A DNA stretch of 64,000 nt from contig CAZFEY010000001.1 of assembly GCA_964518135.1 (NCBI GenBank), positions 2,856-66,855 on the forward strand. Reading direction: 5' to 3'. Under the pieces are notes generated by a model. That model worked only from the letters and a program-made list of their open reading frames with translations. It was not told the DNA's origin and did not search any database. This stretch comes from an uncultured Candidatus Saccharibacteria bacterium. GTDB taxonomy: Bacteria > Patescibacteriota > Minisyncoccia > Minisyncoccales > 2-12-FULL-40-12. This document shows, in pieces, positions 48 through 64,000 of this stretch; within the stretch, counting starts at the first letter, position 1; each line of letters starts with the position of its first letter. The position numbers and the translations under genes are program-made.

Positions 48-80
48 CTACCTGGCGTACCAGGTAGTGAAAGTTCAACT
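48..80. repeat. left boundary of GIY-YIG cassette: 12-bp direct repeat 'ctacctggcgta' (48-59) followed by inverted-repeat arm 'ccaggtagtgaaagttcaac'
   Basis: Same 12-mer recurs at 375-386; 48-67 forms perfect hairpin ctacctgg-cgta-ccaggtag; arm is imperfect inverse of 360-382. Confidence 0.5.
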
Positions 81-352
81 TAATTTTTCAGCTTATTTTC
101 GTAGAAATGTTCTTTCAACGTGCGCTTCAACAATCTAGACCCTTGGTTCGTTTTAAGATATTCTTCTCTACGCTTAGCATCTTTATCGTTAAGATACGCC
201 TCATAATGAATCAACTGCCATGGTCTATGTGATTTTGTTGAAAAATTCAATCCGCGATTATGTTCTAAAAACCGTTCTTTTAACTTGGTAGTATAGCCGA
301 TATACAAATCTAAATAATTTCTACTCGACAAAACGTAAACATAATGAAACAT
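80..352 (-). CDS. small GIY-YIG nuclease-domain protein (90 aa)
   Basis: N-terminal 'YVYVL...YIGYT' GIY-YIG motif; size and sequence typical of stand-alone GIY-YIG catalytic-domain proteins; paralog of 14399..14647. Confidence 0.75.
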   Translation of the reverse strand: MFHYVYVLSSRNYLDLYIGYTTKLKERFLEHNRGLNFSTKSHRPWQLIHYEAYLNDKDAKRREEYLKTNQGSRLLKRTLKEHFYENKLKN

Positions 353-5153: not shown

Positions 5154-5546
5154 CTACTGGTAAGCATCGGCATTTTCGAAAAAAGAGATCTCTTGCTGTT
5201 TTTGATTATCGTCAAGCTCAATCGCAATAATATCAATTTGCCAAGGATTATCTAACGCAATTTTGTTTTGTATTAACCAGCACTCGGCGGCTTTTGCGAT
5301 TTTTTTTCTCTTTATCAAATCAACTCTATCTTCTGGAAAGAAAACATTTTCCCTGTTAGTAAAAGAGGTTTTTACCTCAACAAAATTAATGACATCATCT
5401 TTTTTACAGACGATGTCAATTTCCCCGGTTTGAGGACCGGCCAAAAAACCAACCTTAAAATTTTTATCTAAAATTTTATATCCCTTACCTTGAAGATAAT
5501 CCAAAGCAATTTTTTCGCCCAGAATACCAATTTCTTTTCCATTCAT
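5154..5546 (-). CDS. YraN/UPF0102 family endonuclease-like protein
   Basis: 'GEIDIVCKKDDVINFVEVKT' matches UPF0102 core (GE-D..VEVK); probable true start MNGKEIG (ORF as listed overlaps giant gene). Confidence 0.65.
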   Translation of the reverse strand: MNGKEIGILGEKIALDYLQGKGYKILDKNFKVGFLAGPQTGEIDIVCKKDDVINFVEVKTSFTNRENVFFPEDRVDLIKRKKIAKAAECWLIQNKIALDNPWQIDIIAIELDDNQKQQEISFFENADAYQ

Positions 5547-5553
5547 AACACAA

Positions 5554-8500
5554 CTAAATCGCGAATCTATTCTGAATGACTCCCGATTTAACATTCATGA
5601 CTTTCGAAGTAAAGATGTGGGAATAAGAGCCGTCGTCATTTTTCTTTTCGATCTTAAGGTAATATTTGCCTGGCGGAACAAGAATATAATATCTTCCATA
5701 TTGATTAGCGACTCTTTTTACCATCTCTTTGTCAACATCGGCATTAAATATTCTTAATATCGCAAATGACAAGGGAAGTCCGGTATCTTTTTCCGATAAA
5801 GTTCCAAAGGTTCTTGTTTTGATATTTAAAGATATAAGCACGCCCAAAAGCATATACAAAAGAACCACGATCAGGTTTGCGCGCTCGGGAGCCAAAAGAA
5901 CGCTTACTATTGCCGAGGCAAAACCAACAACAAATAAAATATCTGCCAACTGCCTAAAAGTAATTTCTGTTTGAGAATAAAGTTTCATCAAATTCTTTTG
6001 CTTTTTGGCAAATTCATTCCAGTCGAACTTTTCTCTATCTAACGGAATGTCTCTCGCGACAACGTCTCCTTTTTCACCCACCTCAACTTCGCCACCAAAA
6101 TAAAGATTACTATATATTTCATCGTTGCTTCTGCCGTAAAGTGCTTTTGATGGGAATTTATAGTGGGTTTTATTGGCTACCATGGTGTATTTACCAGGTT
6201 CTGCCAAAAATCCATACCGACCATCCAAATCAGTAATCGACGTGGTTACCTCCTCGCCTTTTTCGTTCTGTAACATTACATAGGCTGGGTCTAATGGCTG
6301 TTTTGTGATTGAGTCATAAACGGTACCCCAACCTTTGCTCTTACGCTTTAATCCAAACGCAATCATAAGCGATGACAGTAATCTTAGAAGTTGCAAGCCC
6401 CAATTAGCCGGTGAAATCGGTATAAACCCAATTAATCCCAACCCACTCACAATCAATCCAGTCATTGCAATTGCCTTGGCAGTATCCTCTGCTGCGGGAC
6501 TATTTAACCAGCCACGGACAATATCAATAATACCTTTCTGCTCTTCTTCCTCTTCTGGAACTGCTGGCACGCATCTCTCCTCGGTCCATTCTTCTATGGA
6601 AATATATTCTTGTTCGATCTCACACCATTGAGTACCCGGAGGAACACATCTGTCCACCGTCCACTCTTCTTCTGGCATATATCTTTGTTCAACTTCGCAC
6701 CATCTCGCTCCGTCGGTAACACATCTCCTTTCGGTCCAATCTTGTTCTGGTATATACTGCCTTTCTTTCATGCACCACTTAAGAATAGGAGTTATACACC
6801 TTCCTTCGGTCCACTGTTCTATCGGTATGTATTGTTTTTCCGCTCCGCACCATTTGGTGCCCGGGGGAGTACAACGTTCTTCTGTCCAATCTTGCTCTGG
6901 AATAAAATGCTGTTCAAACTCACACCACTTAGCGCCTTCGGGCACGCATCTCTCCTCGGTCCATTCGTCTTGAGGTATAAACCTTTGTTCGTCTTCGCAC
7001 CATACTGTTAATGGCGGAGGGACGCATCTATCAACGCTCCATTCTTCTTCGGGTATGAATTGCTGCTCGGCTTCGCACCAAAGAGTTCCGTCAGGCGCGC
7101 ATCTTTCCTCGGTCCATTCGTCTTGAGGTATAAATTGTTGTTCTTTCTCACACCATTGATTTACCGGCCCTCCACCACCTCCAGGGACATCACACCTTGC
7201 GCTTGTCCATTCTCCTTGAGGTATAAAAGCATTTTCTTTGACGCACCAGGTCATCACCGCAGCTGGGAACCAATTAATGTTATTGCCATTATCTACAAAA
7301 TGAACTGGATCAATCGGCAGAGCCGCTTGGTTAACCGAATTCCCAACGTTCACGAAATCAACATTCCAAGCAGCAGGATTAATATTCCATTGGTCAGCTC
7401 CGGCTCCTCCTGCTCTCTCAAGGTTAATATTGTTTCCAGCCGCTCCAGCAATTTCCCAACTAGCCGGGCTTGTAATTGTTTGAGTGGAGTCTGATTGGAA
7501 AGCCAAAGTTTTGCCCGGTGTCGTGCAGCTAAAATTCCAAAAAGTAGAGTTACCACTGATGGTTGAGGTTTGGGTCGCATCATTAAAGGTAACTGTGTTA
7601 TTGCTATGAGAAAATATTCCATTCTTAGTCCAATTACTACCCAAAGTGATATTTTTACCATCGGCATTAAGATTTGCGGCGGCATCTATTGTTAGACTGC
7701 CAGTTAAAGCATTGGCTCCGGTCAGATTTCCCACCGGAACATATGTTTCAGCTCCGGAAAACTGAATTGAATTATAGGTGGTGGTTGTAACATTAATATT
7801 TCCCGCAGCATTCGTTGCTGAATACTGAACAGTGGAATTAGTTCCAGGAGTCAAAGTGCCATTAACAGTTAAAACTGTTGCTACGGCTCCGGCATTGGCA
7901 AGGTTCAATATGTACCCATTAGAGGCGAGATCCAACGTATTGTTAGCATTAACGGTCATTATGTCCGCAGTCATTGAGGAAGCCAAGGTCAGCTCATTTC
8001 CTGCTCCTCCGCCAATAACTACTGCTCCAATATTTTGCTTAACCGCTGTGGAGTCGGTGTAGTTATTGTCTTCGACTCCATCAAAAGTTAAAGTTCCTCC
8101 TTTAGTGTAGGTAGTGCCTGCGTCTAAAGTAAAGTTGCCGGCATAATTCTGGCTCAAAGCATTGGTGTCAAAAGTACCAGCTGATTGTAAAAAATTTCCA
8201 TCAACATCTAAAGCATTGTTGGTTAATTGTAGGATTCCGGCTCCGGAGTGGGTTAGATGATTGAAAAGGAATCCCGCTCCTACTCCTCCGGAGTCCAGGG
8301 CTTGGGTGCCGGCGGCAGCGCTAAAAGTAACAAGACCCTCTCTTGGAGTAAATGTTCCATTATTATCCCAATTACCGGCCAGAGTAATATTATAATCACC
8401 ACCAAAAACAGCATCTAGGGTAGCGCCGTTATCAATGGTTAAGCTTCCCGTTAAAGCATTTGCGCCAGTATGATTACCTTCTAAAATATAAGTTTCAGCG

Positions 8501-11500
8501 CCAGAAAGTTGTAAGCTACTATAGGGCGTAATGGTAACGGTTATATTTATAGCGCCATTCACTCCTGAATATTGTACCGTAGAGGTGCCAGGATTAAGAG
8601 TCCCGGTTACTCTTAGTACGTGTGCGATTTCTGCAGGGTCAGCCCAAATACCACTAGATCCGCCTGCTAAATTTAAAGTATAGCTACCTACACCTAGATT
8701 TAAGGTAGTGCTAACATCTAAGGAATTCACGGTCATCGAAGAAGCCAATGTAATTTCCTTTCCAACGCCACCCCCAATAATAACCTCTCCGATATCTTGT
8801 TTTACAGCTGTTGAGTCCGTATAAATTGCCGTATCTGTTGCTCCATCAAAAGTTAGAGTTCCGCCTTTGGTATAAGTAGTGTCTGCATCAAGAGTAAAAC
8901 TGCCAGCGTAGTTTTGGTCTAAAGCGTTAGTATTAAAGGTACCTGCCTGAAGGCGAAAATTGCCATCCACATCAAGAGGACTGTTGGCAAGAGTTAACAT
9001 CCCGCCTCCTGTATAATCTATGGTTAGATTCCAAAAAGCGCTTGCTCCAGGGTCTAGGAGTGGAAAGGGCGGAGGAGCGCCGGGATAATCAAAAACAACT
9101 GTATTGTTGCCATGGGTGAAAATAGCTGAATTTGCCCAACCGCTACCACCACCAACATACATATCCTGCCCGTTAGCATTAAATATGCCTGCCGAATTAA
9201 TAAAACCACCATCTATGTCAACCGCATTCGTAATGAGTCTCAATGTTCCATCGCCAGAGTGAGTAAGACCATTAAAAGATTTGCCAGCGCCCACTCCTCC
9301 GGAATTCAAATCTTGAGTTCCAACTCCGGCATTAAAAGTAACAGTATTAGACCTTGGGGTAAATGTTCCGGCATTAGACCAATTACCAGCCAAAGTAATG
9401 TTGTAGTTTTGACCATCAACAGCGTCTAAGGTAGCGCCACTATCAATTGTTAAACTTCCAGTCAAAGCATTGCCGCCCGTAAGATTACCTAAAAGTTCAT
9501 AGGTTTCAGCTCCAGAAAACTGCAAAGAGTTATAAGTCGTAGTAGTAACCTCGATATTGTTGCCTACGATAACTCCGGAATATTTCACCGTGGAAGTACC
9601 CGGCGTAAGAGTACCTATTACGATTAGTGAATCCCCGACCCCATCCCCATGAACAGCAGCCGTAAGAACACCTTGTAAATCTAAGGTGTAGTTATTAGAA
9701 TTTAAATCTAAAACATTGTCTATGTTGATAGTCATCGTATCCACGGTCATACTGGATAGTAAAGTAAGCTGATTGTCTGGAGGGGCGGCGGCGGCGGACA
9801 ACAACCTAACCGTCCCTATGTTTTGTTTTGTGTCATTGGAATCAGTATAGGTTATCCCGAGACCATGATTAAAGGTAACTGTTCCGCCCTTAGTGTAAGT
9901 AGTGTTGGCTAAAAGCTCAACATCGCCAGAAAAAACTTGGCTCAATCCATTAGCATCGAAAGTTCCTCCTTGAAGCGAAAAAGTCCCATCTACATCTAAT
10001 AAGTTGGTGTCAAGTTGTTTAATTCCAGCGTTGCTTAAAGTAAGGTTATAAAAACTACTATTTGGACCGTTGTCTATGGTTTGAGTTCCAGCTGCGGCGT
10101 TGAAGGTAACTGTGCCACTTCCGGGAGTAAAAACCCAATTATTATCCCAATTGCCAGCTAAAGTAATTCCGTAGTTTTGAACGACATCAGCGCTCAAAGT
10201 TGAAACATTATCTATGGTTATATTTCCGGTTAAAGCGTTGGCGCCTGTTAAATTGCCCAATAATACATAAGTCTCGGCGCCAGAAACCTGAAGAGAATTG
10301 TAGGTGGTATTGGTAACTAGCATATTGCCCCCTCCAAAAACCGCTGAATACTTCACCGTGGAGGTTCCGGGAGTAAGGGTTCCGTCAACACGCAGCGAAT
10401 CCCTCTCGGCTGGATGCCCTGGCAGGGGCACTAAAAACACATCTTTTAAATCTAAAACATAACTATTCGAACCTAAATCGAGAGTGTTGTCGGCATCAAT
10501 CAACATTGTGTCCACGGTCATATTAGACGCAAGAGTAATCTTTTTCCCTGCTCCGCCACCGATAACAACGGTCCCAATATTTTGTGTCGCGGCCGTGGAA
10601 TCGGTATAAATCGCAGTATCTGTCGCTCCATCAAAGGTTAAAGCACCTCCTTTGGTATAACCAGTACCCAAATCCAAAGTAAAGCCACCTGCGTAATTTT
10701 GGTTTAGAGCGTTAGCGTTAAAGGTTCCATCCTGGAGACGGAAGTTGCCATCTACATCGAGATTATTGGTATCGAGAGCTATACTTCCACCTGCTCCGCT
10801 AAGATTTATGGTAAGATGCCAAAAAGAACTTGAACCGTTATTTAAGGTGTATACTGCGATTTCTGTACCATTGAATTCAACTGTGCTTGAACCGGGAGTA
10901 AAGGTACCGGAATTAGACCAGTTTCCTGAAAGAGTAGCAGTATAAGTTTCAGCGTTAAAATTTGCGCCGGCCTGGATAGTAACATCGTCAGAAATTAAGT
11001 TACCGCCCGGGGTATAAGTTTTATTCGTCCAGACAATAAAATCAACTCCCGCATCTAATGTTAGATCGCTACCAGCCACCGAAAAAGGAACTGCTAGCCC
11101 GCCTTCGCCAGTAGAAAAATCTGCATTTGTTATTGGCCCCGCTGTTTCATGTCTGGCAGTAACAGTATCAAGGCTGGAAACTGTAAAATCAGCTATGTTT
11201 GTGGTAGTCGTTGCAACAGTAACTATAGCCACATCTTCGCCAGCGCCGCCCGAGTAAAAAGTAATAATATCGCCATCGCTAAAATAATGCTGCATTGTAA
11301 AGGTAATGTTGGCGCCTGCCAATATATCGGATGTTGCTGGCACCAAGCTAGTGGGTAAACCCCCATTTATCGCTATTGTCGTGTCATTTAAATTATCTCC
11401 GCTATTATTAAATACAGTAATGTCTATCTGAAAAAGCCAATTGGTATTATTGTCAGAGTTAGTTGAGGTAATAGCCGTAACGGTTCCACCATTAATACTG

Positions 11501-12726
11501 TTAGAATCTTTAACGTCTACGTATGTAACCGAGACAGATGCGGCAGCGACAACATCTACCTCCCATTGACTTCCTGGCGTAGTACTCCTTAAGACAATTT
11601 GGTTGGCGCCGGCACCTCCAGTTAAAAGAAGATTGGTAATAGTCTGGGTTGTACCATCGGTGAAGGTAATTTGTTTGGCAGCGGTTATAGAAGTAAAGTT
11701 TTCGAATGTCGTAGAGCCAGAGATTGTTGACACCTTGCCACTGTCGTTAAAAGTCACCGAAGGATTTGCTCCATTAAAAGAACCACTCGTAAAAGCCCAA
11801 CTGCCAGATAATGCTATGGTACCGCCTACATTATATGTGGCGCCATTCAAAGTAAAATTCCCTGAAATAGTTAGTACGCTGGGATCGTTGAAGATCCCGC
11901 TAGTCAAATCAACATTACCAGTAACGCTCAATCTGTTGCCGAATACTTCTAAGACATTGTAAGTTCCGCCGGATTGGGTAAAATTACCACCGACAATAAG
12001 GTTTACAGCCACACTCAATCCTCCTCCAGATAAATCAACATTGCCAGTGGTCTCTGTATTCCCAGTACTTGTAAATGTTCCTCCTGCCACACTTAACGAA
12101 CTAGCCGTGATAGCATTACCCCCATCAGAAAAAGCAGCGATGCTGTTGGCACCAGCCATCGCGAAAGCTCCCATACCCGGTATTGCCACCGTCAAAGATA
12201 TTGAGCCGTCATATCCGTCTGTGGCACCCGCGTCGCCCGTAATAGTTAATGATTCTCCAGCTGATCCCCAAGTGCCGAGATTGTCAATGGTGACATTTTT
12301 ATCATTGGTGCTGTTAAAAGTTACTGTGTCTCCAGCGGCTGGGGCGCCATCTGGCAACCAGTTAAGATCATCTGACCAGTTTTCTGTTAATCCTTCACCG
12401 TCCCAAACTTTTGCTTCGGCCTTGACTAAAAAAGGAATAGAGGAAAACAATACCAGAATCAACAAAAATAATGTTCCAAATAAAGAAAGCCAGTGGGTAA
12501 TCTGGGCGTAAGGATTCAGATGCCAACGGTAATACGCAACTGATTTTCGTAATAAGTATCTATGCAAAGGAGCCAACTGCGGAATAGTGGTTTTTTTGGC
12601 AGAGTATGGAATCAGAAAAAGCCATTCGTTGAGCTCTTGGACTTTTTTTGAACGTTCCCTTTTCTCTTTCTCCATTTTAGCGATTCGCCTTTCTTCTTTT
12701 GTTTGAAAAATCCGCCCAAAGGCCAT
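5554..12726 (-). CDS. giant (2390 aa) membrane-anchored surface protein: N-terminal signal-anchor, long parallel beta-helix/autotransporter-like repeat region, 9x 25-aa Cys-pair repeats, C-terminal TM helices with two carboxypeptidase-regulatory-like beta-sandwich domains
   Basis: Repeated 'GNLTGANALTGSLTIDN...NITLAGNW.N.GTFTP...TVTFNA..GTQ' units; tandem WCE.EQ.FIP..EWTEERC.P repeats; 'GTVYDSITKQPLDPAYVMLQNEKGEEVTTSITDLDGRYGF...GKYTMV' CarboxypepD_reg-like; several hydrophobic helices near C-terminus. Confidence 0.8.
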   Translation of the reverse strand: MAFGRIFQTKEERRIAKMEKEKRERSKKVQELNEWLFLIPYSAKKTTIPQLAPLHRYLLRKSVAYYRWHLNPYAQITHWLSLFGTLFLLILVLFSSIPFLVKAEAKVWDGEGLTENWSDDLNWLPDGAPAAGDTVTFNSTNDKNVTIDNLGTWGSAGESLTITGDAGATDGYDGSISLTVAIPGMGAFAMAGANSIAAFSDGGNAITASSLSVAGGTFTSTGNTETTGNVDLSGGGLSVAVNLIVGGNFTQSGGTYNVLEVFGNRLSVTGNVDLTSGIFNDPSVLTISGNFTLNGATYNVGGTIALSGSWAFTSGSFNGANPSVTFNDSGKVSTISGSTTFENFTSITAAKQITFTDGTTQTITNLLLTGGAGANQIVLRSTTPGSQWEVDVVAAASVSVTYVDVKDSNSINGGTVTAITSTNSDNNTNWLFQIDITVFNNSGDNLNDTTIAINGGLPTSLVPATSDILAGANITFTMQHYFSDGDIITFYSGGAGEDVAIVTVATTTTNIADFTVSSLDTVTARHETAGPITNADFSTGEGGLAVPFSVAGSDLTLDAGVDFIVWTNKTYTPGGNLISDDVTIQAGANFNAETYTATLSGNWSNSGTFTPGSSTVEFNGTEIAVYTLNNGSSSFWHLTINLSGAGGSIALDTNNLDVDGNFRLQDGTFNANALNQNYAGGFTLDLGTGYTKGGALTFDGATDTAIYTDSTAATQNIGTVVIGGGAGKKITLASNMTVDTMLIDADNTLDLGSNSYVLDLKDVFLVPLPGHPAERDSLRVDGTLTPGTSTVKYSAVFGGGNMLVTNTTYNSLQVSGAETYVLLGNLTGANALTGNITIDNVSTLSADVVQNYGITLAGNWDNNWVFTPGSGTVTFNAAAGTQTIDNGPNSSFYNLTLSNAGIKQLDTNLLDVDGTFSLQGGTFDANGLSQVFSGDVELLANTTYTKGGTVTFNHGLGITYTDSNDTKQNIGTVRLLSAAAAPPDNQLTLLSSMTVDTMTINIDNVLDLNSNNYTLDLQGVLTAAVHGDGVGDSLIVIGTLTPGTSTVKYSGVIVGNNIEVTTTTYNSLQFSGAETYELLGNLTGGNALTGSLTIDSGATLDAVDGQNYNITLAGNWSNAGTFTPRSNTVTFNAGVGTQDLNSGGVGAGKSFNGLTHSGDGTLRLITNAVDIDGGFINSAGIFNANGQDMYVGGGSGWANSAIFTHGNNTVVFDYPGAPPPFPLLDPGASAFWNLTIDYTGGGMLTLANSPLDVDGNFRLQAGTFNTNALDQNYAGSFTLDADTTYTKGGTLTFDGATDTAIYTDSTAVKQDIGEVIIGGGVGKEITLASSMTVNSLDVSTTLNLGVGSYTLNLAGGSSGIWADPAEIAHVLRVTGTLNPGTSTVQYSGVNGAINITVTITPYSSLQLSGAETYILEGNHTGANALTGSLTIDNGATLDAVFGGDYNITLAGNWDNNGTFTPREGLVTFSAAAGTQALDSGGVGAGFLFNHLTHSGAGILQLTNNALDVDGNFLQSAGTFDTNALSQNYAGNFTLDAGTTYTKGGTLTFDGVEDNNYTDSTAVKQNIGAVVIGGGAGNELTLASSMTADIMTVNANNTLDLASNGYILNLANAGAVATVLTVNGTLTPGTNSTVQYSATNAAGNINVTTTTYNSIQFSGAETYVPVGNLTGANALTGSLTIDAAANLNADGKNITLGSNWTKNGIFSHSNNTVTFNDATQTSTISGNSTFWNFSCTTPGKTLAFQSDSTQTITSPASWEIAGAAGNNINLERAGGAGADQWNINPAAWNVDFVNVGNSVNQAALPIDPVHFVDNGNNINWFPAAVMTWCVKENAFIPQGEWTSARCDVPGGGGGPVNQWCEKEQQFIPQDEWTEERCAPDGTLWCEAEQQFIPEEEWSVDRCVPPPLTVWCEDEQRFIPQDEWTEERCVPEGAKWCEFEQHFIPEQDWTEERCTPPGTKWCGAEKQYIPIEQWTEGRCITPILKWCMKERQYIPEQDWTERRCVTDGARWCEVEQRYMPEEEWTVDRCVPPGTQWCEIEQEYISIEEWTEERCVPAVPEEEEEQKGIIDIVRGWLNSPAAEDTAKAIAMTGLIVSGLGLIGFIPISPANWGLQLLRLLSSLMIAFGLKRKSKGWGTVYDSITKQPLDPAYVMLQNEKGEEVTTSITDLDGRYGFLAEPGKYTMVANKTHYKFPSKALYGRSNDEIYSNLYFGGEVEVGEKGDVVARDIPLDREKFDWNEFAKKQKNLMKLYSQTEITFRQLADILFVVGFASAIVSVLLAPERANLIVVLLYMLLGVLISLNIKTRTFGTLSEKDTGLPLSFAILRIFNADVDKEMVKRVANQYGRYYILVPPGKYYLKIEKKNDDGSYSHIFTSKVMNVKSGVIQNRFAI
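6540..7290. repeat. about 9 diverged tandem about 75-bp repeats (encode 25-aa WCE...ERCVP units on minus strand)
   Basis: Periodic recurrence in protein and in spurious plus-strand ORFs (repeated '...LSSVHSS...'). Confidence 0.7.
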
Positions 12727-13412: not shown

Positions 13413-14126
13413 TTAATTACGGTCTCGAAGAAAATAAATGCCGACATAAGACAAAGGAGTATAAACAGCTCCCATTGCTACCTTATAAAGCCACCAAGTA
13501 ATAATAATGCTTATGAGCGTAGGCGTTGAATACACTCCCGCAAACGCTATTACCATAAAAATTACCGTATCTAGAAATTGCGACCAAAGATTAGAAAGCA
13601 TTGATCTTAACCAGAAAAATTTCACGCCCATTTTTTCTCGCAAAAAGAAAAACGAAAATACATCTTGATATTCTGCAATTAGGAATGCAGCCAAAGAAGC
13701 TACGGCAATACGAACAGAAACACCAAAGACCTGATTATATCCTTCTTTTACCCATTCACCGTCAGCAGACCATGGTAGCGCAATCGAAAGAAGAGAATAA
13801 ACAATAAACAATGCCGTACTGATAAAACCGGCTAAAACAAAAAACTTTGCAGTTTTCTTTCCATAAACTTCTCCAATAACATCTGTCATCAAAAAAACAA
13901 CCGGAAAAGAAAATACAGCCACAGACAAATGAGAACCGAACAAAAATGGCATTATTTTCAACCCCAAAGTATTTGCCGCAAACAAAGAAGTAAGATAAAT
14001 CGCAAGAGCAATAAGAATTTTTTTGAATGATTTTTCAGGAAATTGAAACATAAAAATAAATAATTTAGTTGATAATAAATAAGTTTGTTTTTTCAAATAA
14101 AAAACCGCCTGATAGGGCAGAAACAA
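13413..14126 (-). CDS. YhhQ/VUT-family (queuosine-precursor transporter-like) integral membrane protein
   Basis: 6-7 TM helices, 'FPVVFLMTDVIGEVYGKK' resembles YhhQ/DUF165 signature (F..TD.I.E.YG...A); real start probably later Met. Confidence 0.55.
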   Translation of the reverse strand: MFLPYQAVFYLKKQTYLLSTKLFIFMFQFPEKSFKKILIALAIYLTSLFAANTLGLKIMPFLFGSHLSVAVFSFPVVFLMTDVIGEVYGKKTAKFFVLAGFISTALFIVYSLLSIALPWSADGEWVKEGYNQVFGVSVRIAVASLAAFLIAEYQDVFSFFFLREKMGVKFFWLRSMLSNLWSQFLDTVIFMVIAFAGVYSTPTLISIIITWWLYKVAMGAVYTPLSYVGIYFLRDRN

Positions 14127-14246
14127 ACTAATTCAAAATCTACCCTACGGTCTAAAAGAATGAAACTTCATATACAAACCCAGACCAAGTTTTAATCCTA
14201 TAGTTATGAAGCATATATTTTAGTTGTAGTTAAACATATTTAATCT

Positions 14247-14289
14247 TGATGGACCTAGCCAGAATCGAACTGGCGACTGATTAATGTCC
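14247..14289 (-). pseudogene. tRNA-like 3' fragment (T-arm GCCAG-TTCGATT-CTGGC + acceptor 3' strand TAGGTCC)
   Basis: Reverse complement gives canonical T-arm and acceptor strand but no complete 5' half; lies immediately 3' of tRNA-Ala. Confidence 0.35.
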
Positions 14290-14385
14290 CGACAGTTCTG
14301 GTGGACCCAGGCGGACTCGAACCGCCGTTTCCGCAATGCGAATGCGACGTCTTACCGCTGGACCATGGGCCCGCCAGAACTGTCG
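14290..14385. repeat. perfect 12-bp inverted repeat (cgacagttctgg / ccagaactgtcg) bracketing tRNA-Ala
   Basis: Arms at 14290-14301 and 14374-14385; arms include the CCA end; would form 12-bp leader/trailer stem around the pre-tRNA. Confidence 0.7.
14299..14372 (-). tRNA. tRNA-Ala (anticodon CGC), CCA encoded
   Basis: RC: GGGCCCA-TG-...-TCGCA-TTCGCAT-TGCGG-AAAC-GGCGG-TTCGAGT-CCGCC-TGGGTCC-A-CCA; G3:U70 alanine identity pair present. Confidence 0.85.
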
Positions 14386-14398
14386 AGGATCCTCGTAT

Positions 14399-14647
14399 TT
14401 ATAAATTTTTTGAAATTAATCCTTCGATCGCACGTCTCTTTTTCCAAGATTTAATCTGCAACTCTCTTTCTTTGGCATCTTTTAATAATCTATACTCTTC
14501 TTTATGCACAATTTCCCAGGGAATATATCTTTTCGTAGATTTAACTAGGCCTTTGTTATGTAAGCTAATTCTTATTTCCAAATCTTCACAACTACCGATA
14601 TAAAATGAATTATTTTTCTCAGATTTTAAAATGTATGTATAAAACAT
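14399..14647 (-). CDS. small GIY-YIG nuclease-domain protein (82 aa)
   Basis: 'MFYTYILKSEKNNSFYIGSCEDLEIRISLHNKG' GIY-YIG motif; paralog of 80..352. Confidence 0.75.
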   Translation of the reverse strand: MFYTYILKSEKNNSFYIGSCEDLEIRISLHNKGLVKSTKRYIPWEIVHKEEYRLLKDAKERELQIKSWKKRRAIEGLISKNL

Positions 14648-14715
14648 TTTAAAAAATTTATAAATCGGGACGAATGCGCCGTTCTGCCATTTAACTACAG
14701 GCCCTACTATATATA

Positions 14716-14812
14716 TGTCGGGGTGCCGGGAATTCCCGCCTGCCTATCACTATCGCTTTAGGCGATGGCGGGCAGGGAACCCGAATTACTGACTTTCACC
14801 TACCGTCGCCTT
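14716..14812 (-). other. tRNA-like conserved element (acceptor-like stem + T-arm-like CGGG-TTCCCTG-CCCG); uninterrupted copy of the element that hosts tRNA-Arg at 16795-16945
   Basis: Shares 'GGGTTCCCTGCCCGCCAT...AGGCAGGCGGG' with 16821-16931; contains 'GGTAGGTGAAAGT' similar to GIY-YIG cassette inverted repeat; the spurious ORFs beginning 'MAGREP' are its translation. Confidence 0.35.
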
Positions 14813-14820
14813 ATTTTGTC

Positions 14821-14893
14821 GGGGTACCCAGATTCGAACTGGGGTCACACGAACCCGAATCGTGTATACTACCACTGTACTATACCCCGTATC
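14821..14893 (-). tRNA. tRNA-Pro (anticodon CGG), no encoded CCA
   Basis: RC: CGGGGTA-TA-GTAC..GTAT-A-CACGA-TTCGGGT-TCGTG-TGAC-CCCAG-TTCGAAT-CTGGG-TACCCCG-A; fully Watson-Crick acceptor, U8, G37. Confidence 0.8.
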
Positions 14894-14894
14894 A

Positions 14895-15160
14895 GGCTTA
14901 TGGCGGACGAGGCCGAAGCCAGCGTAATACCGTTATACCACACCCCGAAAAACTCCCCCAGACAAGATAATATGGATTTTGGGACAATCCGCAACCTTCA
15001 ACAAAACAAATCCTCAAGAGCAAGGGATTTTATTGCTTGGGGAACATCCGCAGGCAAATTGCATGGTTCCGCGAAGCGGAAATTTGCCGAGGAACCGAGC
15101 TTGTCCCGCGCTGGCGGGACAGGGCGTATCCCCAAATATAAAATCCTTGAAGCTCCCCCC
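14895..15160. ncRNA. candidate structured non-coding RNA (GC-rich, nested hairpins and a pseudoknot), family unknown
   Basis: GGCAAATT...AATTTGCC 8-bp inverted repeat enclosing CCGC-GAAG-GCGG hairpin; loop GGTTCC pairs with downstream GGAACC; GTCCCGC-GCTG-GCGGGAC hairpin; GC about 48%; no convincing ORF. Confidence 0.3.
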
Positions 15161-16692
15161 TAACTCACCCAATACTTTTTCTTCGTCATCTCATCCTTTT
15201 TTACTATCAATTGTTCTTTGTCTTTCCTAGATTTTTTAACTAAAGACGTTAATTCTTTATCGGACAACTTACCTAGCTTTTCAGTTTCTTTTTTTAAAAA
15301 CGCTTTTTTGTTGTTTTTTGGATCTTCCAAGATAATCCCCAATAAAATATCCAAAATTTGTCCAACTTTCGGTCCTGGTTTCATTTTCAGAATTTTCATA
15401 ACATCATTCCCTGAAACCTTCAGCATTTTTGCCGAAATCGGGTCTTGCGAGACTTTATCAATGATATATTTAAGATGTCTTAATTTGTATGGTTCGGCCT
15501 TGGGAACGCCAGAACCAATTCTATCTGCCATTCTTAATTGCAAAAGTTCTTCCATATTTTCTATTCCTACCTGACGAACCAGCCTGCGCACAGACGACTC
15601 TCCAACCTCGTCCACATTATAATAAAATAGGTGATAACGAACTAGTTTTGTTATTTTCTCAATGTCTTTATTGGAAAATCTAAGACGATCTAGAATCTGA
15701 CGAGCCATTTTGGCCCCGACAATTTCGTGCCCATAAAAAGTTGAATCTGACCCTTCGCCATGCTTAACTCTTGGCTTTGCAATATCGTGCAACAAAGAGG
15801 CTATTCTTACGTTCTTGTTAAAATTTTTCTTTGCGGCAAAGTCGAGCGCCCTCATATTATGCTCATAACAAGAGTATATATGATGTTTATTCTGACCAAT
15901 ATTATAACCCTCTTCAAGTTCTGGCAAGATATGTTTCAAGAGCGAAAGTTCTCTTAACAACTCTATCCCGCCCATTGCACTTTCTGACATTATAATTTTC
16001 GAAAACTCGTCTCTTATTCTTTCTTGCGAAATATACCTAATCAAATCAGAGTTTTCCTTAATGGCTTTGGCCGTTTCATTTTCTATGTTCCAACCCATTG
16101 TGGTCGCAAAACGAACAGCCCTCATCATTCTCAAAGCGTCTTCTGAAAACCTTTCTCTGGGATTTCCAACGGCTCTAATCAGCTTTTGTTGTAAATCTTC
16201 CTGCCCATTAAAAAGATCTACGACCTTAAAACCTAAATCTTGAAGCTTAAAATCTGAATCTTTTTTTGTCGGTGCTTTAAGCTTTAAGCTTCGCGCTTCA
16301 AGGCCTAACGCTATTGCGTTTACTGTAAAATCGCGCCTAGCTAAATCTTCTTCAAGATTTTTAGCAAAACCGATGTTGTCTGGATGGCGCTTGTCCGTGT
16401 ATTTCGCTTCTTTTCGGAAGGTAGTAATTTCAACTTCTTTCAGTGAAACTTTTTTGCTGCCAGTTTGAACTGTTACCGTAAGAAATTTATTTTCACAAAA
16501 ACTATCTGGGAATATCTTTTGTATCTCTTCTGGCTTAGCATCGGTAGTTATGTCCCAATCCTCGGGATCTGCTCCTCGTAAAATATCCCTAACACACCCT
16601 CCTACAACATAGGCACCATATCCGCTTTTATGAAGTTTTTGGATAATATTCTTTATTTCCTTCGGTATTTCTATTTTTACCATTAAAATCAT
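15160..16692 (-). CDS. cca: CCA-adding enzyme / poly(A) polymerase family nucleotidyltransferase with HD domain
   Basis: 'GAYVVGGCVRDILRG...DWDITT' Pol-beta NT motif, 'RDFTVNAIA', HD domain 'LLHDIAKP'. Confidence 0.85.
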   Translation of the reverse strand: MILMVKIEIPKEIKNIIQKLHKSGYGAYVVGGCVRDILRGADPEDWDITTDAKPEEIQKIFPDSFCENKFLTVTVQTGSKKVSLKEVEITTFRKEAKYTDKRHPDNIGFAKNLEEDLARRDFTVNAIALGLEARSLKLKAPTKKDSDFKLQDLGFKVVDLFNGQEDLQQKLIRAVGNPRERFSEDALRMMRAVRFATTMGWNIENETAKAIKENSDLIRYISQERIRDEFSKIIMSESAMGGIELLRELSLLKHILPELEEGYNIGQNKHHIYSCYEHNMRALDFAAKKNFNKNVRIASLLHDIAKPRVKHGEGSDSTFYGHEIVGAKMARQILDRLRFSNKDIEKITKLVRYHLFYYNVDEVGESSVRRLVRQVGIENMEELLQLRMADRIGSGVPKAEPYKLRHLKYIIDKVSQDPISAKMLKVSGNDVMKILKMKPGPKVGQILDILLGIILEDPKNNKKAFLKKETEKLGKLSDKELTSLVKKSRKDKEQLIVKKDEMTKKKYWVS

Positions 16693-16781
16693 TCTATCTT
16701 AAAAATTGATTTTTTCAATCTTTTGAGTTAGGCTTAAAAACAGCATAACGGTTAATATTTCCTAGCAAAATTATCTTATGC

Positions 16782-16950
16782 CCCCGTGGCAAGGCGCCTC
16801 GCTTCGGACGAGAAAATTGAGGGTTCCCTGCCCGCCATATTTGCCTCCATAGTGAAACGGATATCATACATGGCTTCGGACCATGAGTTCCGGGTTCGAA
16901 TCCTGGTGGAGGTACGGCAAGGCAGGCGGGGAGTCCTTTTGGGGGTACGA
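16782..16950 (+). other. degenerate tRNA-Arg-like outer element (acceptor GCCCCCG/TGGGGGT, anticodon-loop CTTCGGA) interrupted by intact tRNA-Arg
   Basis: Outer sequence has anticodon stem-loop CTCG-CTTCGGA-CGAG identical in loop to inner tRNA; halves 'GGGTTCCCTGCCCGCCAT' and 'AGGCAGGCGGG' are contiguous in the 14716-14812 copy. Confidence 0.3.
16843..16914 (+). tRNA. tRNA-Arg (anticodon TCG), no encoded CCA
   Basis: GCCTCCA-TA-GTGA..TCAT-A-CATGG-CTTCGGA-CCATG-AGTT-CCGGG-TTCGAAT-CCTGG-TGGAGGT-A; G1:U72 wobble. Confidence 0.8.
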
Positions 16951-17035
16951 TTATTTATTTTTGAGCGTAGCGAGAAAACATTTATTTTTATCGTAAAATG
17001 ATATATAATCCGAGAAGAATAATCCATATTGCAAG

Positions 17036-17455
17036 ATGAAAAAGATAATCCTAAATATAATTTTATTGTCTTTTATAATCGGCCTACCCTACATTGCTAA
17101 CGCACAACCAGTTGGCTTAGTGCCTTGCGGTAACATTGGCGAACCACCCTGTCAACTCTGCCACATATTTATTCTCTTTAATAACATTATCTCATTCTTG
17201 CTTGTTCCTGGTAATCCCTTTGGGGGATTCCCTGTGGTACTTGCTATCGCTGGACTAATGATATTATGGTCAGGATTCTTATATATAATGAGCTTTGGGG
17301 ACCCTAAGAACCTAATCAAATCAAGAGAAATACTAAAAGCAACGGGCCTTGGATTGTTAATAGTTTATGGCGCTTGGGCTGCTGTTAACACATTGTCATG
17401 GTTCGGCATTATTCCGAATAACTGGTTTACGATTAACTGCCCTATTATTCCTTAA
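17036..17455 (+). CDS. secreted VirB2/TrbC-like pilin-like protein (stand-alone, 139 aa)
   Basis: Sec signal peptide, then hydrophobic helices separated by short polar loop 'SFGDPKNLIKSREILKATG'; paralogous to N-termini of 27978.. and 33753.. proteins. Confidence 0.45.
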   Translation: MKKIILNIILLSFIIGLPYIANAQPVGLVPCGNIGEPPCQLCHIFILFNNIISFLLVPGNPFGGFPVVLAIAGLMILWSGFLYIMSFGDPKNLIKSREILKATGLGLLIVYGAWAAVNTLSWFGIIPNNWFTINCPIIP

Positions 17456-17462
17456 AAAACAA

Positions 17463-17496
17463 CGCGCCCGTAGCTCAATTGGCCCCGCACCCTCCA
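17463..17496 (+). pseudogene. tRNA 5' fragment (acceptor GCGCCCG + D-arm GCTC-AATTGG) directly abutting tRNA-Lys
   Basis: Canonical acceptor/D-arm start without remainder; partial complementary strand 'TAGGCGC' found 3' of tRNA-Lys (17590-17597). Confidence 0.35.
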
Positions 17497-17570
17497 TGCC
17501 CCCATAGCTTAATTGGTAAAGCAGGAACCTCTTAAGTTCAAGAGTCCAGGTTCGAGCCCTGGTGGGGGCA
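17497..17570 (+). tRNA. tRNA-Lys (anticodon CTT), no encoded CCA
   Basis: GCCCCCA-TA-GCTT-AATTGGTA-AAGC-A-GGAAC-CTCTTAA-GTTCA-AGAGT-CCAGG-TTCGAGC-CCTGG-TGGGGGC-A. Confidence 0.8.
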
Positions 17571-17655
17571 TAGAGCGTACGGGGCAAACCTAGGCGCAAT
17601 ACAATAATCAAGTCGAGATAATTAAGGTATTACTGTTAAACAACATACATTATAT

Positions 17656-17922
17656 ATGCTAAGCAACGAGGAAAAAGGAAAGATAATATCAAAACACAAA
17701 ATCCACGAGAAAGACACTGGATCTGCCGAGGTGCAAATCGCTTTACTTTCCGAGGAGATAGATAAGCTTCTTTTGCATCTTAAAAGCCACGCAAAAGATT
17801 TTCATTCAAAGCGGGGTCTTTTGAAAATGGTATCAAGAAGAAGGAAGCTTTTGAGCGTCTTGAAAGAAGAAGACGAAAAAAGATATAATAGTATTATAAA
17901 AAAAGTTGGTCTTAAAAAATAG
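17656..17922 (+). CDS. rpsO: 30S ribosomal protein S15
   Basis: '[50 protein letters not shown]' S15 signature. Confidence 0.9.
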
Positions 17923-63810: not shown

Positions 63811-63835
63811 AACTATTTATTTAAAAAATTTTTAT

Positions 63836-63960
63836 AGTGGAGGCGGAGGGGTTGAACCCTCGTCCGAAAATTAATTCAGAAATAAATCTACAAACTTAGC
63901 CAGGTTTGTTTTGGAACGAAAAGTATAAAATCTGGCAAAACCCTTTCGTTCTTTGCCTTT
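63836..63960 (-). promoter_or_regulatory. structured 5' leader of infC-rpmI-rplT operon (8-bp hairpin GAACGAAA/TTTCGTTC; tRNA-like T-arm + ...CCTCCA 3' end); possible L20-type autoregulatory leader
   Basis: RC contains GAGGG-TTCAAC-CCCTC T-arm-like hairpin adjacent to CGCCTCCA; no matching 5' acceptor strand, so not a complete tRNA. Confidence 0.3.
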
Positions 63961-64000
63961 GTTTTTGATAGCTCTCCAGGCACTAGAGTTATCTATCTCG

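Follow-up and report, generated by a model that had tools for sequence, protein, structure and literature searches.

Each of the four tRNA genes called in the 64-kb stretch of contig CAZFEY010000001.1 analysed here (referred to as the window) was found to be nested inside the remains of another tRNA gene (4/4 called genes). The outer gene is interrupted by a cassette whose ends are short inverted repeats that form a stem (CCTGCC(CGCC)AT ... GGCAGG(CGGG) in the cassettes that we call family T, and TCCCGA ... TCGGGA in those that we call family A), and the loop of the cassette consists of a complete tRNA gene bracketed by a second stem, to which family A adds a GIY-YIG nuclease gene. Insertions are located at 56/57 in the T loop and at 35/36 or 36/37 in the anticodon loop, with no target duplication, and D arms contain related hairpins and one tRNA-bearing insertion. 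We consider it probable, at roughly 0.6, that the insertions are selfish DNA cassettes of the homing type, directed at loops of tRNA genes, and that they bring along a tRNA of their own as a replacement. The anatomy of the nests, the insertion points, the absence of target duplication, the recurrence across lineages and the match between inner and outer anticodons are established, and inner tRNAs are perfect while outer tRNAs range from perfect to badly decayed. It is likewise established that near-identical nuclease modules are present in different nests.

Repeated Blocks and Nested tRNA Genes in the Window

An earlier reading of the window, made from its letters without database searches (the sequence-only reading), had described an 18-mer and an 11-mer that recur on the two strands, one pair of them on either side of a tRNA-Arg gene, and these blocks were found where it had placed them. 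The 18-mer GGGTTCCCTGCCCGCCAT is located at 14782-14765 (minus strand) and 16821-16838 (plus strand), and the 11-mer AGGCAGGCGGG at 14745-14735 (minus) and 16920-16930 (plus). On the minus strand, the blocks are 19 nucleotides (nt) apart, and on the plus strand they are separated by ATTT, a 72-nt tRNA-Arg(tcg) at 16843-16914 that is called by ARAGORN and matches Rfam RF00005 with 59.8 bits, and CGGCA. The acceptor-like pair GCCCCCG/TGGGGGT (16780-16786 and 16941-16947) and the anticodon arm CTCG-CTTCGGA-CGAG (16799-16813) reported in the same reading are also present.

The 15-mer GGTTCCCTGCCCGCC (the GGTTCCCTGCCCGCCC... motif) occurs in two exact copies in the 64 kb, compared to 0.5 expected even when up to three mismatches are allowed, and therefore chance is ruled out. 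An assembly artefact is excluded because both copies are present, identical to those of the window, on an independent Joint Genome Institute (JGI) metagenome contig, L001 (here and below, L-numbers are labels of the genome or metagenome contigs or loci that were compared with the window). The hairpin arms were found nowhere else in the window, where two exact copies and one variant all lie within tRNA genes; being so confined, the blocks are not the widespread repetitive extragenic palindromic (REP)-like element that had been put forward as the case against a tRNA-related origin. The nesting of the neighbouring annotated tRNA-Pro, tRNA-Ala and tRNA-Lys genes had been overlooked. When ARAGORN was run with intron detection on the whole window, it returned only the four inner tRNAs and no outer gene. 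The features of the nests are collected in Table 1.

Table 1. Outer tRNA gene parts, insertions and called tRNAs of the nests in the window.
Feature	Coordinates	Strand	Description
Outer tRNA-Ala(CGC), 5' part to G35	14671..14704	minus	GGGCCTG TA GTTAAATGGCAGAAC G GCGCA TTCG; aligns with L264, L265, L266
Family-A cassette at 35/36 of outer tRNA-Ala	14287..14670	minus	384 nt, TCCCGA ... TCGGGA
Outer tRNA-Ala, 3' part from C36	14250..14286	minus	CAT, TAATC, GCCAG-TTCGATT-CTGGC, TAGGTCC, A
Outer tRNA-Pro(CGG), exon 1	14913..14947	minus	CGGGGTG TG GTAT AACGGT ATTAC G CTGGC TTCGG
Anticodon-loop cassette of outer tRNA-Pro (36/37)	14796..14912	minus	117 nt = 23 + 71 + 23
Outer tRNA-Pro, exon 2	14777..14795	minus	AA, GTCAG (3' anticodon stem), TAAT, TCGGG (T stem), TTC
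Hairpin-only family-T insertion, T loop of outer tRNA-Pro (56/57)	14735..14776	minus	42 nt, CCTGCCCGCCAT-CGCCTAAAGCGATAGTGATA-GGCAGGCGGG
Outer tRNA-Pro, exon 3	14718..14734	minus	AATT, CCCGG, CACCCCG, A73
Outer tRNA-Arg(UCG), 5' part	16780..16826	plus	ends at C56; minimum-energy fold pairs 16780-85 with 16941-46
Family-T cassette, T loop of outer tRNA-Arg (56/57)	16827..16930	plus	104 nt = 16 + 72 + 16
Outer tRNA-Arg, 3' part	16931..16947	plus	GAGT (rest of T loop), CCTTT, TGGGGGT, A73
Fourth nest, Arg(UCG)-like remnant around tRNA-Lys(CUU)	17464..17598	plus	inner tRNA-Lys 17498-17570 in the D loop
tRNA-Ala(cgc)	14299-14372	minus	ARAGORN/Rfam call
tRNA-Pro(cgg)	14818-14889	minus	ARAGORN/Rfam call
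tRNA-Arg(tcg)	16843-16915	plus	ARAGORN/Rfam call
tRNA-Lys(ctt)	17497-17571	plus	ARAGORN/Rfam call

Family-T Insertions in the tRNA-Arg and tRNA-Pro Genes

The shared blocks are composed of tRNA sequence and insertion sequence. The 18-mer consists of GGG (the end of the T stem), TTC (T54 to C56) and the left arm of a hairpin, CCTGCCCGCCAT, and the 11-mer contains the right arm, GGCAGGCGGG, which is followed in both loci by R57-A58-N-T and the 3' strand of the T stem. The insertion point at both loci is exactly between C56 and R57 of the host tRNA. Removal of CCTGCCCGCC...GGCAGGCGGG restores canonical T arms (GAGGG-TTCGAGT-CCTTT on the plus strand and TCGGG-TTCAATT-CCCGG on the minus strand), and therefore the blocks are the ends of an insertion between these two residues. 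The proposal that one tRNA-like element is present in two copies did not hold, as the hosts differ: tRNA-Pro(CGG) at 14947-14718 and tRNA-Arg(UCG) at 16780-16947. The supposed element at 14716-14812 is merely the 3' third of the outer tRNA-Pro, which starts well outside those coordinates.

The 5' part of the outer tRNA-Arg comprises the acceptor strand GCCCCCG, a D region truncated to 8 nt, the anticodon arm CCTCG-CTTCGGA-CGAGA, the T-stem strand GAGGG and TTC. The cassette within it has the order CCTGCCCGCCAT (16827-16838), ATTT, inner tRNA-Arg(UCG) (16843-16914), CGGCAA and GGCAGGCGGG (16921-16930), and with the insertion removed, GAGGGTTC abuts GAGTCCTTTTGGGGG at the exon junction to give GAGGGTTCGAGTCCTTTTGGGGGTA. 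Because the D arm is missing, the outer tRNA-Arg was not called by ARAGORN even after excision of the cassette.

The outer tRNA-Pro contains two insertions. The cassette in its anticodon loop begins with CCTCGTCCGCCAT... and ends with ...GGCGACGGTAGGTGA, enclosing an inner tRNA-Pro(CGG) at 14889-14819 that is the annotated tRNA-Pro; the ends of this cassette are related to those of family T (CCTCGTCCGCCAT ... GGCGACGGTAGG), its layout is symmetrical, like that of the Arg cassette, and its arm variant GGCGACGG(T)AGG occurs also in L195. When both insertions were excised, ARAGORN called a 72-nt tRNA-Pro(cgg) with every stem paired, in which the T-loop exon junction joins GGGTTC to AATTCCCGG (CTGGCTTCGGAAGTCAGTAATTCGGGTTCAATTCCCGGCACCCCGA). 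The minimum-energy folds of 16780-16947 and 14947-14718 are nested cloverleaves, with z = -2.9 and -3.7, respectively.

The sequence-only reading had described the Arg locus as a functional tRNA inside a decayed copy of itself. A tRNA-Arg(UCG) does lie within damaged tRNA-Arg(UCG)-like halves, but these are not a copy of it, as only 46 of 72-73 positions are shared. Between the inner and outer tRNAs of the window, only 46/72 to 48/71 positions are shared, and the differences in stems are compensated, which argues for two separate lineages of one isoacceptor and against a recent duplication.

The tRNA-Ala Nest, Its GIY-YIG Nuclease Gene, and the tRNA-Lys Nest

The family-A cassette in the outer tRNA-Ala consists of TCCCGA, an AT-rich inverted repeat, a GIY-YIG open reading frame (ORF; 14647-14399), ACGAGGATCCTCGA, a stem CAGTTCTGG..., the inner tRNA-Ala(CGC) (14372-14302), CCAGAACTG and TCGGGA. 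In the 3' part of the outer tRNA-Ala, the T arm and G3:U70 are kept, and the 3' strand of the anticodon stem is decayed (TAATC instead of TGCCG). The ORF (14399-14647) encodes 82 amino acids (aa) with a PF01541 domain (E = 2e-14), and the protein is 100% identical to one of 'Parcubacteria group bacterium GW2011_GWA1_36_12'. A 20-nt AT-rich inverted repeat (14397-14416 and 14646-14665, 95% complementary) brackets the ORF exactly, as if the ORF had in turn been inserted into a cassette that was older and ORF-less.

Three other loci (L264, L265 and L266) have the same architecture and encode close GIY-YIG homologues: outer tRNA-Ala to G35, then TCCCGA, an AT-rich stretch, the ORF, TCGAGGATCCnCGA, a spacer, the inner tRNA-Ala, a spacer and TCGG(G/A)A, and then the outer tRNA from C36 onwards. 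The inner tRNA-Ala of L266 has the anticodon UGC, and the 3' anticodon strand of its outer tRNA is decayed. The nuclease modules of L265 and L266 (TCCCGA and ORF) have 3 differences in about 295 nt, whereas the exons, inner tRNAs and 3' spacers of the two loci differ widely, and this contrast points to recent movement of the module; the identical protein is listed in 105 blocks of the sequence collection. Considered as homing cassettes, the family-A insertions thus have an ORF with a GIY-YIG catalytic domain inside the insertion and a near-identical module in different contexts (L265 and L266); the family-T insertions in tRNA-Arg and tRNA-Pro are without an ORF, and a tblastn search with the GIY-YIG protein against the family-T loci gave no match.

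A second GIY-YIG ORF in the window, at 80-352 (minus) just after rny (375-1904), encodes a protein 41% identical to that of the Ala nest. A direct repeat of 19 nt, CGCCAGGTAG(T/C)AGAAAT(T/C)C, which includes the rny stop codon, lies on either side of this ORF, as if the nuclease gene had carried in the end of its target or duplicated it. The homologues of L262 and L271-L274 are free-standing and located directly after conserved genes (DNA ligase, YqeY). Together with the repeat at the end of rny, these copies suggest that this GIY-YIG family acts in the manner of free-standing homing endonuclease genes, which supply a duplicate of the sequence that is displaced.

The fourth nest has the sequence GCGCCCG TA GCTC AATTGG, followed by CCCCGCACCCTCCAT and tRNA-Lys(CUU), and then TA GAGC G TACGG..CAAACC TAGGCGC A. 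Only the acceptor and the D arm of the outer gene survive, and the 5' part matches the tRNA-Arg(tcg) of L082, GCGCCCGTAGCTCAATTGGATAGAGCG. This is the sole case in which the inner and outer identities differ, and another Arg(UCG) gene is located 600 nt away. Single-deletion scans of the outer tRNA-Ala, tRNA-Arg and tRNA-Lys yielded no clean tRNA; many calls for tRNA-Ala were discarded as chimaeras or odd long-arm models.

Anticodons of Inner and Outer tRNAs

The anticodons of outer tRNAs were determined by in silico excision of the insertions followed by ARAGORN, and some were read by eye. It was found that the inner anticodon equals the outer anticodon in every resolvable pair: Gln CUG at seven distinct loci (L127/L232, L233, L238, L244/255, L247, L250 and L245, the last read by eye as its outer tRNA was not called by ARAGORN), Gln UUG at one (L223/237/256), Gly CCC at one (L228), Arg CCG at two (L179, L195), Arg UCG at two (L229, L243) and Pro CGG at one (the window). 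The same match was obtained by reading for the window Arg and Ala nests and for L230, and by reading and alignment for the Ala nests L264 and L265 (CGC or UGC).

Occurrence in Other Genomes

One genome per species was scanned with a 17-mer, giving 119 hits that were retained only if a second arm and a tRNA context were present; most of the hits were chance matches or coding sequence, such as a conserved ...GGSLPAI... protein motif. The same family-T arms were found in L087, L099, L127, L129, L134, L160, L163, L179 and L223-L260. Hairpin-only T-loop insertions were present in Saccharibacteria (L087), Patescibacteria (L099), Microgenomates (L134), a further metagenome-assembled genome (L163) and tRNA arrays of Aquimarina (L129, L160), and T-loop insertions with an inner tRNA in Uhrbacteria (L127), Doudnabacteria (L179) and Patescibacteria (L195). 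A scan of metagenomes with the left arm and the inner T loop as anchor gave 39 loci, about 22 of which are real nests. These included a Gln family in which the cassette is always 118 nt long, a family for Gly(CCC), Arg(UCG) genes struck at 35/36 of the anticodon loop (CTTC/GAA, where the local sequence is the same as in the T loop) and an Ala(CGC) gene that has, besides a T-loop cassette, a palindromic hairpin of 20 nt at 37/38. Scans of viral contigs gave only chance matches in high-GC phage genes, with no tRNA context.

In Aquimarina, filled sites exceeded empty ones by exactly 38, 40 and 28 nt, and the target was not duplicated: GGGTTC[38 nt]GAA in tRNA-His, which also has CTAG[28 nt]CTTA in the D arm, and GGGTTC[40 nt]GA in tRNA-Ser. 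The two arrays of these marine Flavobacteria, L129 and L160, contain 15 and 12 tRNA genes within about 1.7 kb and 2.6 kb, respectively, and a hairpin of the candidate phyla radiation (CPR) type interrupts a different member in each, Ser(TGA) in one and His(GTG) in the other. Hairpin-only copies lie in or beside a tRNA gene with an intact gene of the same type nearby at 4/7 loci (the window tRNA-Pro, L087, L099 and L134). For L129 and L160, an intact version of the gene is present in the array of the other species but not in the same genome, and at L163 no tRNA could be called.

A second hairpin type, with the arms CCCCG...CGGGG, and variants of the CCTGCC type (CCTGCCTACC, CCTGCCCGTATTGC) are located in D loops or D stems of outer tRNAs, the loci being L099, L195, 17483-17584 of the window, and the D arms of L233, L160 and L245. 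The diversity of the hairpins thus goes beyond the exact motif that was searched. In L087, about 250 nt downstream of an intact tRNA-Pro(cgg), there is a series of 3' tRNA-Pro fragments (T arm and acceptor), each interrupted at 56/57, one by a CCTGCCCGCC hairpin and one by a double hairpin (GCCCTATC..GATAGGGC, CCCCG..CGGGG); this series looks like the result of repeated rounds of invasion. The outer tRNA-Arg(tcg) region of L243 has two successive 3' halves (GAACCACG... and GAACCACA...), each preceded by GGCAGGCGGG, an arrangement that resembles one nest inside another or the product of repeated, imprecise insertion.

In the syntenic relatives L081 and L082, in which the CCA enzyme is 75% and 71% identical to that of the window, tRNA-Lys, tRNA-Arg, tRNA-Pro and tRNA-Ala are in the same places and un-nested. 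The inner tRNA-Pro of the window is identical to the L081 tRNA-Pro at 70/71 positions, compared to only 55/75, 56/72 and 51/72 for Lys, Arg and Ala (about 72-78% for neighbouring tRNAs), and the acceptor stems of the outer tRNA-Pro and outer tRNA-Ala resemble those of L082-type genes. Just after the tRNA-Ala of L081, at 5895-5950, there is a small tRNA-like stretch, GGGGCGAGTTGTGATAATGGCGGTTCCCTGCCAGAGGCGGGTTCGCCC, that contains GGTTCCCTGCC and may be the remnant of a family-T insertion in this otherwise un-nested relative.

Condition of the Outer tRNA Genes

Mismatched stem pairs were found in 0/9 inner tRNAs, whereas 5/9 outer tRNAs had one to three of them (L233, one of the five, is confounded by a D-arm insertion). 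In an alignment of six Gln loci, 126/126 stem cells were paired in the inner tRNAs and 120/126 in the outer tRNAs, and Fisher's test gave p = 0.03 for both contrasts. The inner tRNAs of L238 and L245 are identical, whereas their outer tRNAs differ at about 8 sites and by a D-arm insertion. Outer tRNAs are decayed beyond calling in the Arg, Ala and Lys nests of the window and in L251 and L260, and second or third hairpins are present in the outer tRNAs of the window Pro nest, L160, L195, L230, L233 and L245. We read the outer tRNAs as resident genes of differing age since interruption, probably refreshed in part by gene conversion from the inner copy.

Neighbouring Genes and Other Features of the Window

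The organism belongs to the Parcubacteria type of CPR bacteria. The ORFs near the nests encode the CCA enzyme (cca), a pilin-like protein, Vut_1, NYN, S15 and PNPase, and the best matches of the CCA enzyme are Nealsonbacteria- and Pacebacteria-like proteins with at most 75% identity. A scan for promoters and terminators gave 9 sites compared to 8.4 expected and was uninformative. Between cca and the outer tRNA-Pro, at 14948-15160 (minus), about 200 nt of non-coding sequence look structured, with the hairpins TGTCCCG..CGGGACA, GGCAAATT..AATTTGCC and TCCGC-TTCG-GCGGA; positions 5470-5640 of the syntenic relative L081 share with this region the blocks GGGAGCTTC, GCGGAACCATG, GCCTGCG and CCCTTGCT. 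No Rfam match was obtained for 14948-15160, and a single-deletion scan of 14885-15180 (minus) gave no hidden split tRNA. Elsewhere, the 3' part of a transfer-messenger RNA (63835-64000, minus; RF00023, 60.5 bits) runs past the end of the window, and a long ORF (5554-12726, minus) encodes a repetitive, surface protein-like product of 2390 aa with a repeat region rich in Cys and Trp.

Discussion

The explanation that we favour is that a cassette carries a replacement for the tRNA gene that it breaks, and gene replacement by insertion had been one of the options raised in the sequence-only reading. Insertion, presumably at the DNA level, would cut the resident tRNA gene in two and inactivate it, so that outer genes would not be expressed as working tRNAs. 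In a small genome with one gene per anticodon, selection would allow only those insertions to persist that bring a tRNA with the same anticodon, which would account for the functional inner tRNAs seen between the halves of an outer isoacceptor. The outer halves would then drift through mismatches, further hairpin hits and deletions until they are lost, at which point the replacement would be complete and the cargo would be the new resident; the un-nested L081 tRNA-Pro that is nearly identical to the inner tRNA-Pro of the window is what such a course would leave behind. As derivatives without cargo, hairpin-only copies would persist only where the tRNA gene is redundant or dead, an idea that fits 4/7 loci, and the Aquimarina back-up is inferred only from the array of another species.

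The GIY-YIG protein would drive family A. Family T would be moved by an enzyme acting in trans or by homologous recombination through the conserved exons, and candidates for the mover are a single-strand (HUH-type) transposase, a trans-acting nuclease and homologous recombination after DNA uptake. It may be speculated that single-strand transposition like that of IS200/IS605 is involved, which would fit the hairpin, the 4-nt tail beyond the stem, the absence of duplication and the loop targets; no transposase was found for this model.

Several observations weigh against selfish replacement cassettes. When the ORFs within 2.5 kb of 25 cassettes were clustered, no recurrent enzyme was found beside family T, synteny of cca aside. 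The cassette arms, an unpaired ATCGCT and a C-A mismatch are invariant and the second stem covaries, and this combination is as compatible with selection on an RNA or single-strand structure as with a transposition signal. The insertions are mostly in loops, as are archaeal tRNA introns, with two in D stems. In the Ala nests, the inner tRNA keeps the anticodon-loop sequence of the presumed nuclease target and would somehow have to escape cutting. The outer genes themselves are not uniformly poor: 4/9 are flawless, the outer tRNA-Ala(UGC) of L265 has no flaw, including G3:U70, and its CCA is encoded, and the outer tRNA-Gln has compensatory changes in 12/21 stem pairs across six loci, including the acceptor stem, which could not have been copied from the inner gene. 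Compensated and flawless outer tRNAs require either independent recent insertions into diverged residents or continued selection on the outer RNA. Furthermore, the cores of inner and outer tRNAs within a locus are often more alike than inner tRNAs are across loci (in L244 and L247 they are almost identical and the acceptor stems differ), so that replacement by insertion needs gene conversion after the event. The same pattern of outer tRNAs is also expected of a functional, spliced outer tRNA, and for this reason splicing is kept as the main rival.

According to that rival, the insertions are introns at the RNA level and form a bacterial class that is new, being neither group I nor bulge-helix-bulge. 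The hairpin, whether or not it holds a tRNA, would be removed from the outer pre-tRNA and an enzyme would ligate the exons, so that one transcript would yield two working tRNAs. We think this unlikely, although it is the strongest of the alternatives; the particular version in which the hairpins are recognised by their arms (CCUGCC...GGCAGG-CGGG), are excised from T, anticodon and D loops, and in some cases house a second tRNA, so that one transcript gives two isoacceptors, seems slightly less likely still. The insertions are precise to the nucleotide and their removal restores canonical T and anticodon loops, they occur mostly in loops, at several positions and several per gene, as in the tRNAs of Thermoproteales, and many outer cloverleaves are perfect, with compensatory change in outer stems across loci, the acceptor stem included. 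Invariant arms and an unpaired hexamer beside a covarying second stem look as if recognised by a protein, and an abundance of tRNA introns, some of them at 35/36, is already documented for Patescibacteria (PMC13011429). However, efficient splicing gives no reason for the cargo always to share the anticodon of its host, outer tRNAs are decayed in many lineages and inner tRNAs never, and hairpin-only copies, where the context is readable, are seen only with a back-up gene present. In addition, RNase P and 3' processing of the inner tRNA would split the outer precursor, and no candidate splicing enzyme was found near the cassettes.

Neither known type of intron accounts for the insertions. No bulge-helix-bulge is present at the junctions as read: the two splice points lie opposite one another at the foot of a single helix, and the first 4 nt of the 3' exon (GAGT, AATT or GAAT) cannot pair with the intron start CCUG. 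A group I core was not detected in an Rfam scan of the whole window at gathering thresholds, and cmscan of 13800-17800 with permissive filters (E <= 10) returned only tRNA and noise. The inserts of 42, 104 and 117 nt are short of the approximately 200 nt or more needed for P3-P9, 72 and 71 nt of the last two being tRNA, and the family-A cassette has only about 60 nt that are neither ORF nor tRNA. The 5' exons end with C56, G35 or G36 and the family-A insert ends with A, instead of the usual U and G.

Formation of the nests in place, by duplication of the tRNA around a hairpin (template switching or hairpin-primed repair) and gene conversion with no transfer between genomes, appears improbable. 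The near-identity of inner and outer tRNAs in L247 and L244 apart from the acceptor stem would be expected from it, as would the co-variation of inner and outer anticodons (UUG with UUG, CUG with CUG). It does not explain why tRNAs as unrelated as those for Gln, Gly, Arg, Ala and Pro have identical arms and spacers on either side in distant classes of CPR bacteria and in Bacteroidota, why the inner and outer tRNAs of the window appear to be separate lineages (46/72 to 48/71 shared, with compensated stems), why a nuclease module is near-identical in two different nests, or why the inner tRNA-Pro matches that of L081 far better (70/71) than the neighbouring tRNAs do. We give little credence to a resemblance to rRNA intervening sequences, in which the helix would be cut by RNase III or RNase P/Z to leave an unligated, two-piece outer tRNA, or in which the outer fold would be a processing scaffold for the inner tRNA. 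A long continuous helix of T stem, arms and second stem is predicted, and insertions are known in CPR rRNA genes (cited in PMC13011429), but a break with tails of 16-27 nt in the T loop, or one inside the anticodon, is unlikely to leave a usable tRNA, and outer tRNAs decay or vanish in relatives (L081, L082; L251, L260) in which the inner tRNA is retained.

An integrase scar or a chance or REP-like repeat is very improbable. Duplication of an attachment (att) site by an integrase, another of the options of the sequence-only reading, gained no support. The tRNA genes, T loops and anticodon loops included, are classic integration sites, yet there is no integrase or island among the neighbours (cca, pilin-like protein, Vut_1, S15, PNPase), the 5' and 3' halves both flank an insert of 104-420 nt with no direct repeat of the 3' segment, and the inner and outer sequences differ. 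A chance or REP-like origin is at odds with a motif that occurs only inside tRNA genes in the window, and a miniature inverted-repeat transposable element (MITE) or REP element was rejected given no target duplication in the comparison of filled and empty sites and no intergenic dispersal in the window. An integron attC site was discarded on reading the junctions, and pairing of the CGGG tail with G53-C56 was discarded because of its wrong polarity.

When compared to known systems, the cassette appears to work most like a homing-endonuclease cassette or a target-repairing tRNA island in which the repair is a whole gene nested in the old one. Small free-standing GIY-YIG homing genes include SegB in the tRNA gene cluster of phage T4 and mobE, which splits nrdA in phage Aeh1. 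The present nuclease genes resemble these in being small GIY-YIG genes beside or within essential genes, in having a near-identical module in different contexts, and in the part of the target duplicated beside the second copy, after rny; here, in contrast, the target tRNA gene itself houses the nuclease gene, alongside a whole tRNA that can replace it, and family T has no nuclease gene. Phages, integrative and conjugative elements (ICEs) and tycheposons target tRNA genes and restore the 3' end with a copy of their own, so that there, too, a tRNA gene is interrupted and the loss made good by carried sequence; the cassettes differ in having no integrase, in their size of 0.1-0.4 kb, and in that a whole tRNA is supplied and both old halves remain. 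The 23S rRNA intervening sequences and MITE/REP hairpins are likewise hairpin insertions with a patchy distribution, and the former lie, as here, in loops of structural RNA, but the present insertions are specific to tRNA genes, are not scattered over the intergenic DNA of the window, cause no target duplication and have a tRNA as cargo.

To our knowledge, the T-loop position 56/57 is not known as a bacterial tRNA intron site. The multi-intron tRNA genes of Thermoproteales and of the red alga Cyanidioschyzon, in which introns occupy non-canonical positions and some are transposed, are similar in having short inserts in D, anticodon and T regions, several per gene, and related inserts in different tRNAs; here the host is bacterial, there is no bulge-helix-bulge, a whole tRNA with the same anticodon is inside, and the host exons are decaying. 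Group I introns have been reported at 35/36 of tRNA-Asn and tRNA-Asp in Patescibacteria (Nakagawa et al. 2026, PMC13011429). These group IA introns share with the present insertions the phylum, a tRNA gene interrupted in a way that standard tools miss and, for family A, the exact position 35/36 and an ORF of the homing-endonuclease type; the present inserts differ in having no ribozyme core, in being 42-118 nt long and mostly tRNA, and in containing a second tRNA. No description of nested tRNA genes or of bacterial T-loop insertions was found in the searchable full-text literature, the coverage of which is incomplete.

Because ARAGORN and Rfam detect only the inner genes, the nests are invisible in current annotations whichever reading is correct. 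Nested tRNA genes are widespread, and either reading is directly testable. If the insertions were introns, they would make up an RNA-splicing system that is new for bacteria and has its counterpart in the multi-intron and split tRNA genes of archaea. If, as we favour, they are selfish cassettes with a replacement tRNA, they would represent a third strategy by which selfish elements can reside in essential genes, namely that of carrying a complete spare copy, in addition to self-splicing introns and inteins and to integrases that rebuild the end of their target, and a very compact cassette that targets tRNA genes would be gained. The stray tRNA halves that confuse annotation would be explained, and the tRNA genes of CPR bacteria would turn over by replacement, which would account for odd tRNA phylogenies such as that of the tRNA-Pro identical at 70/71 positions.

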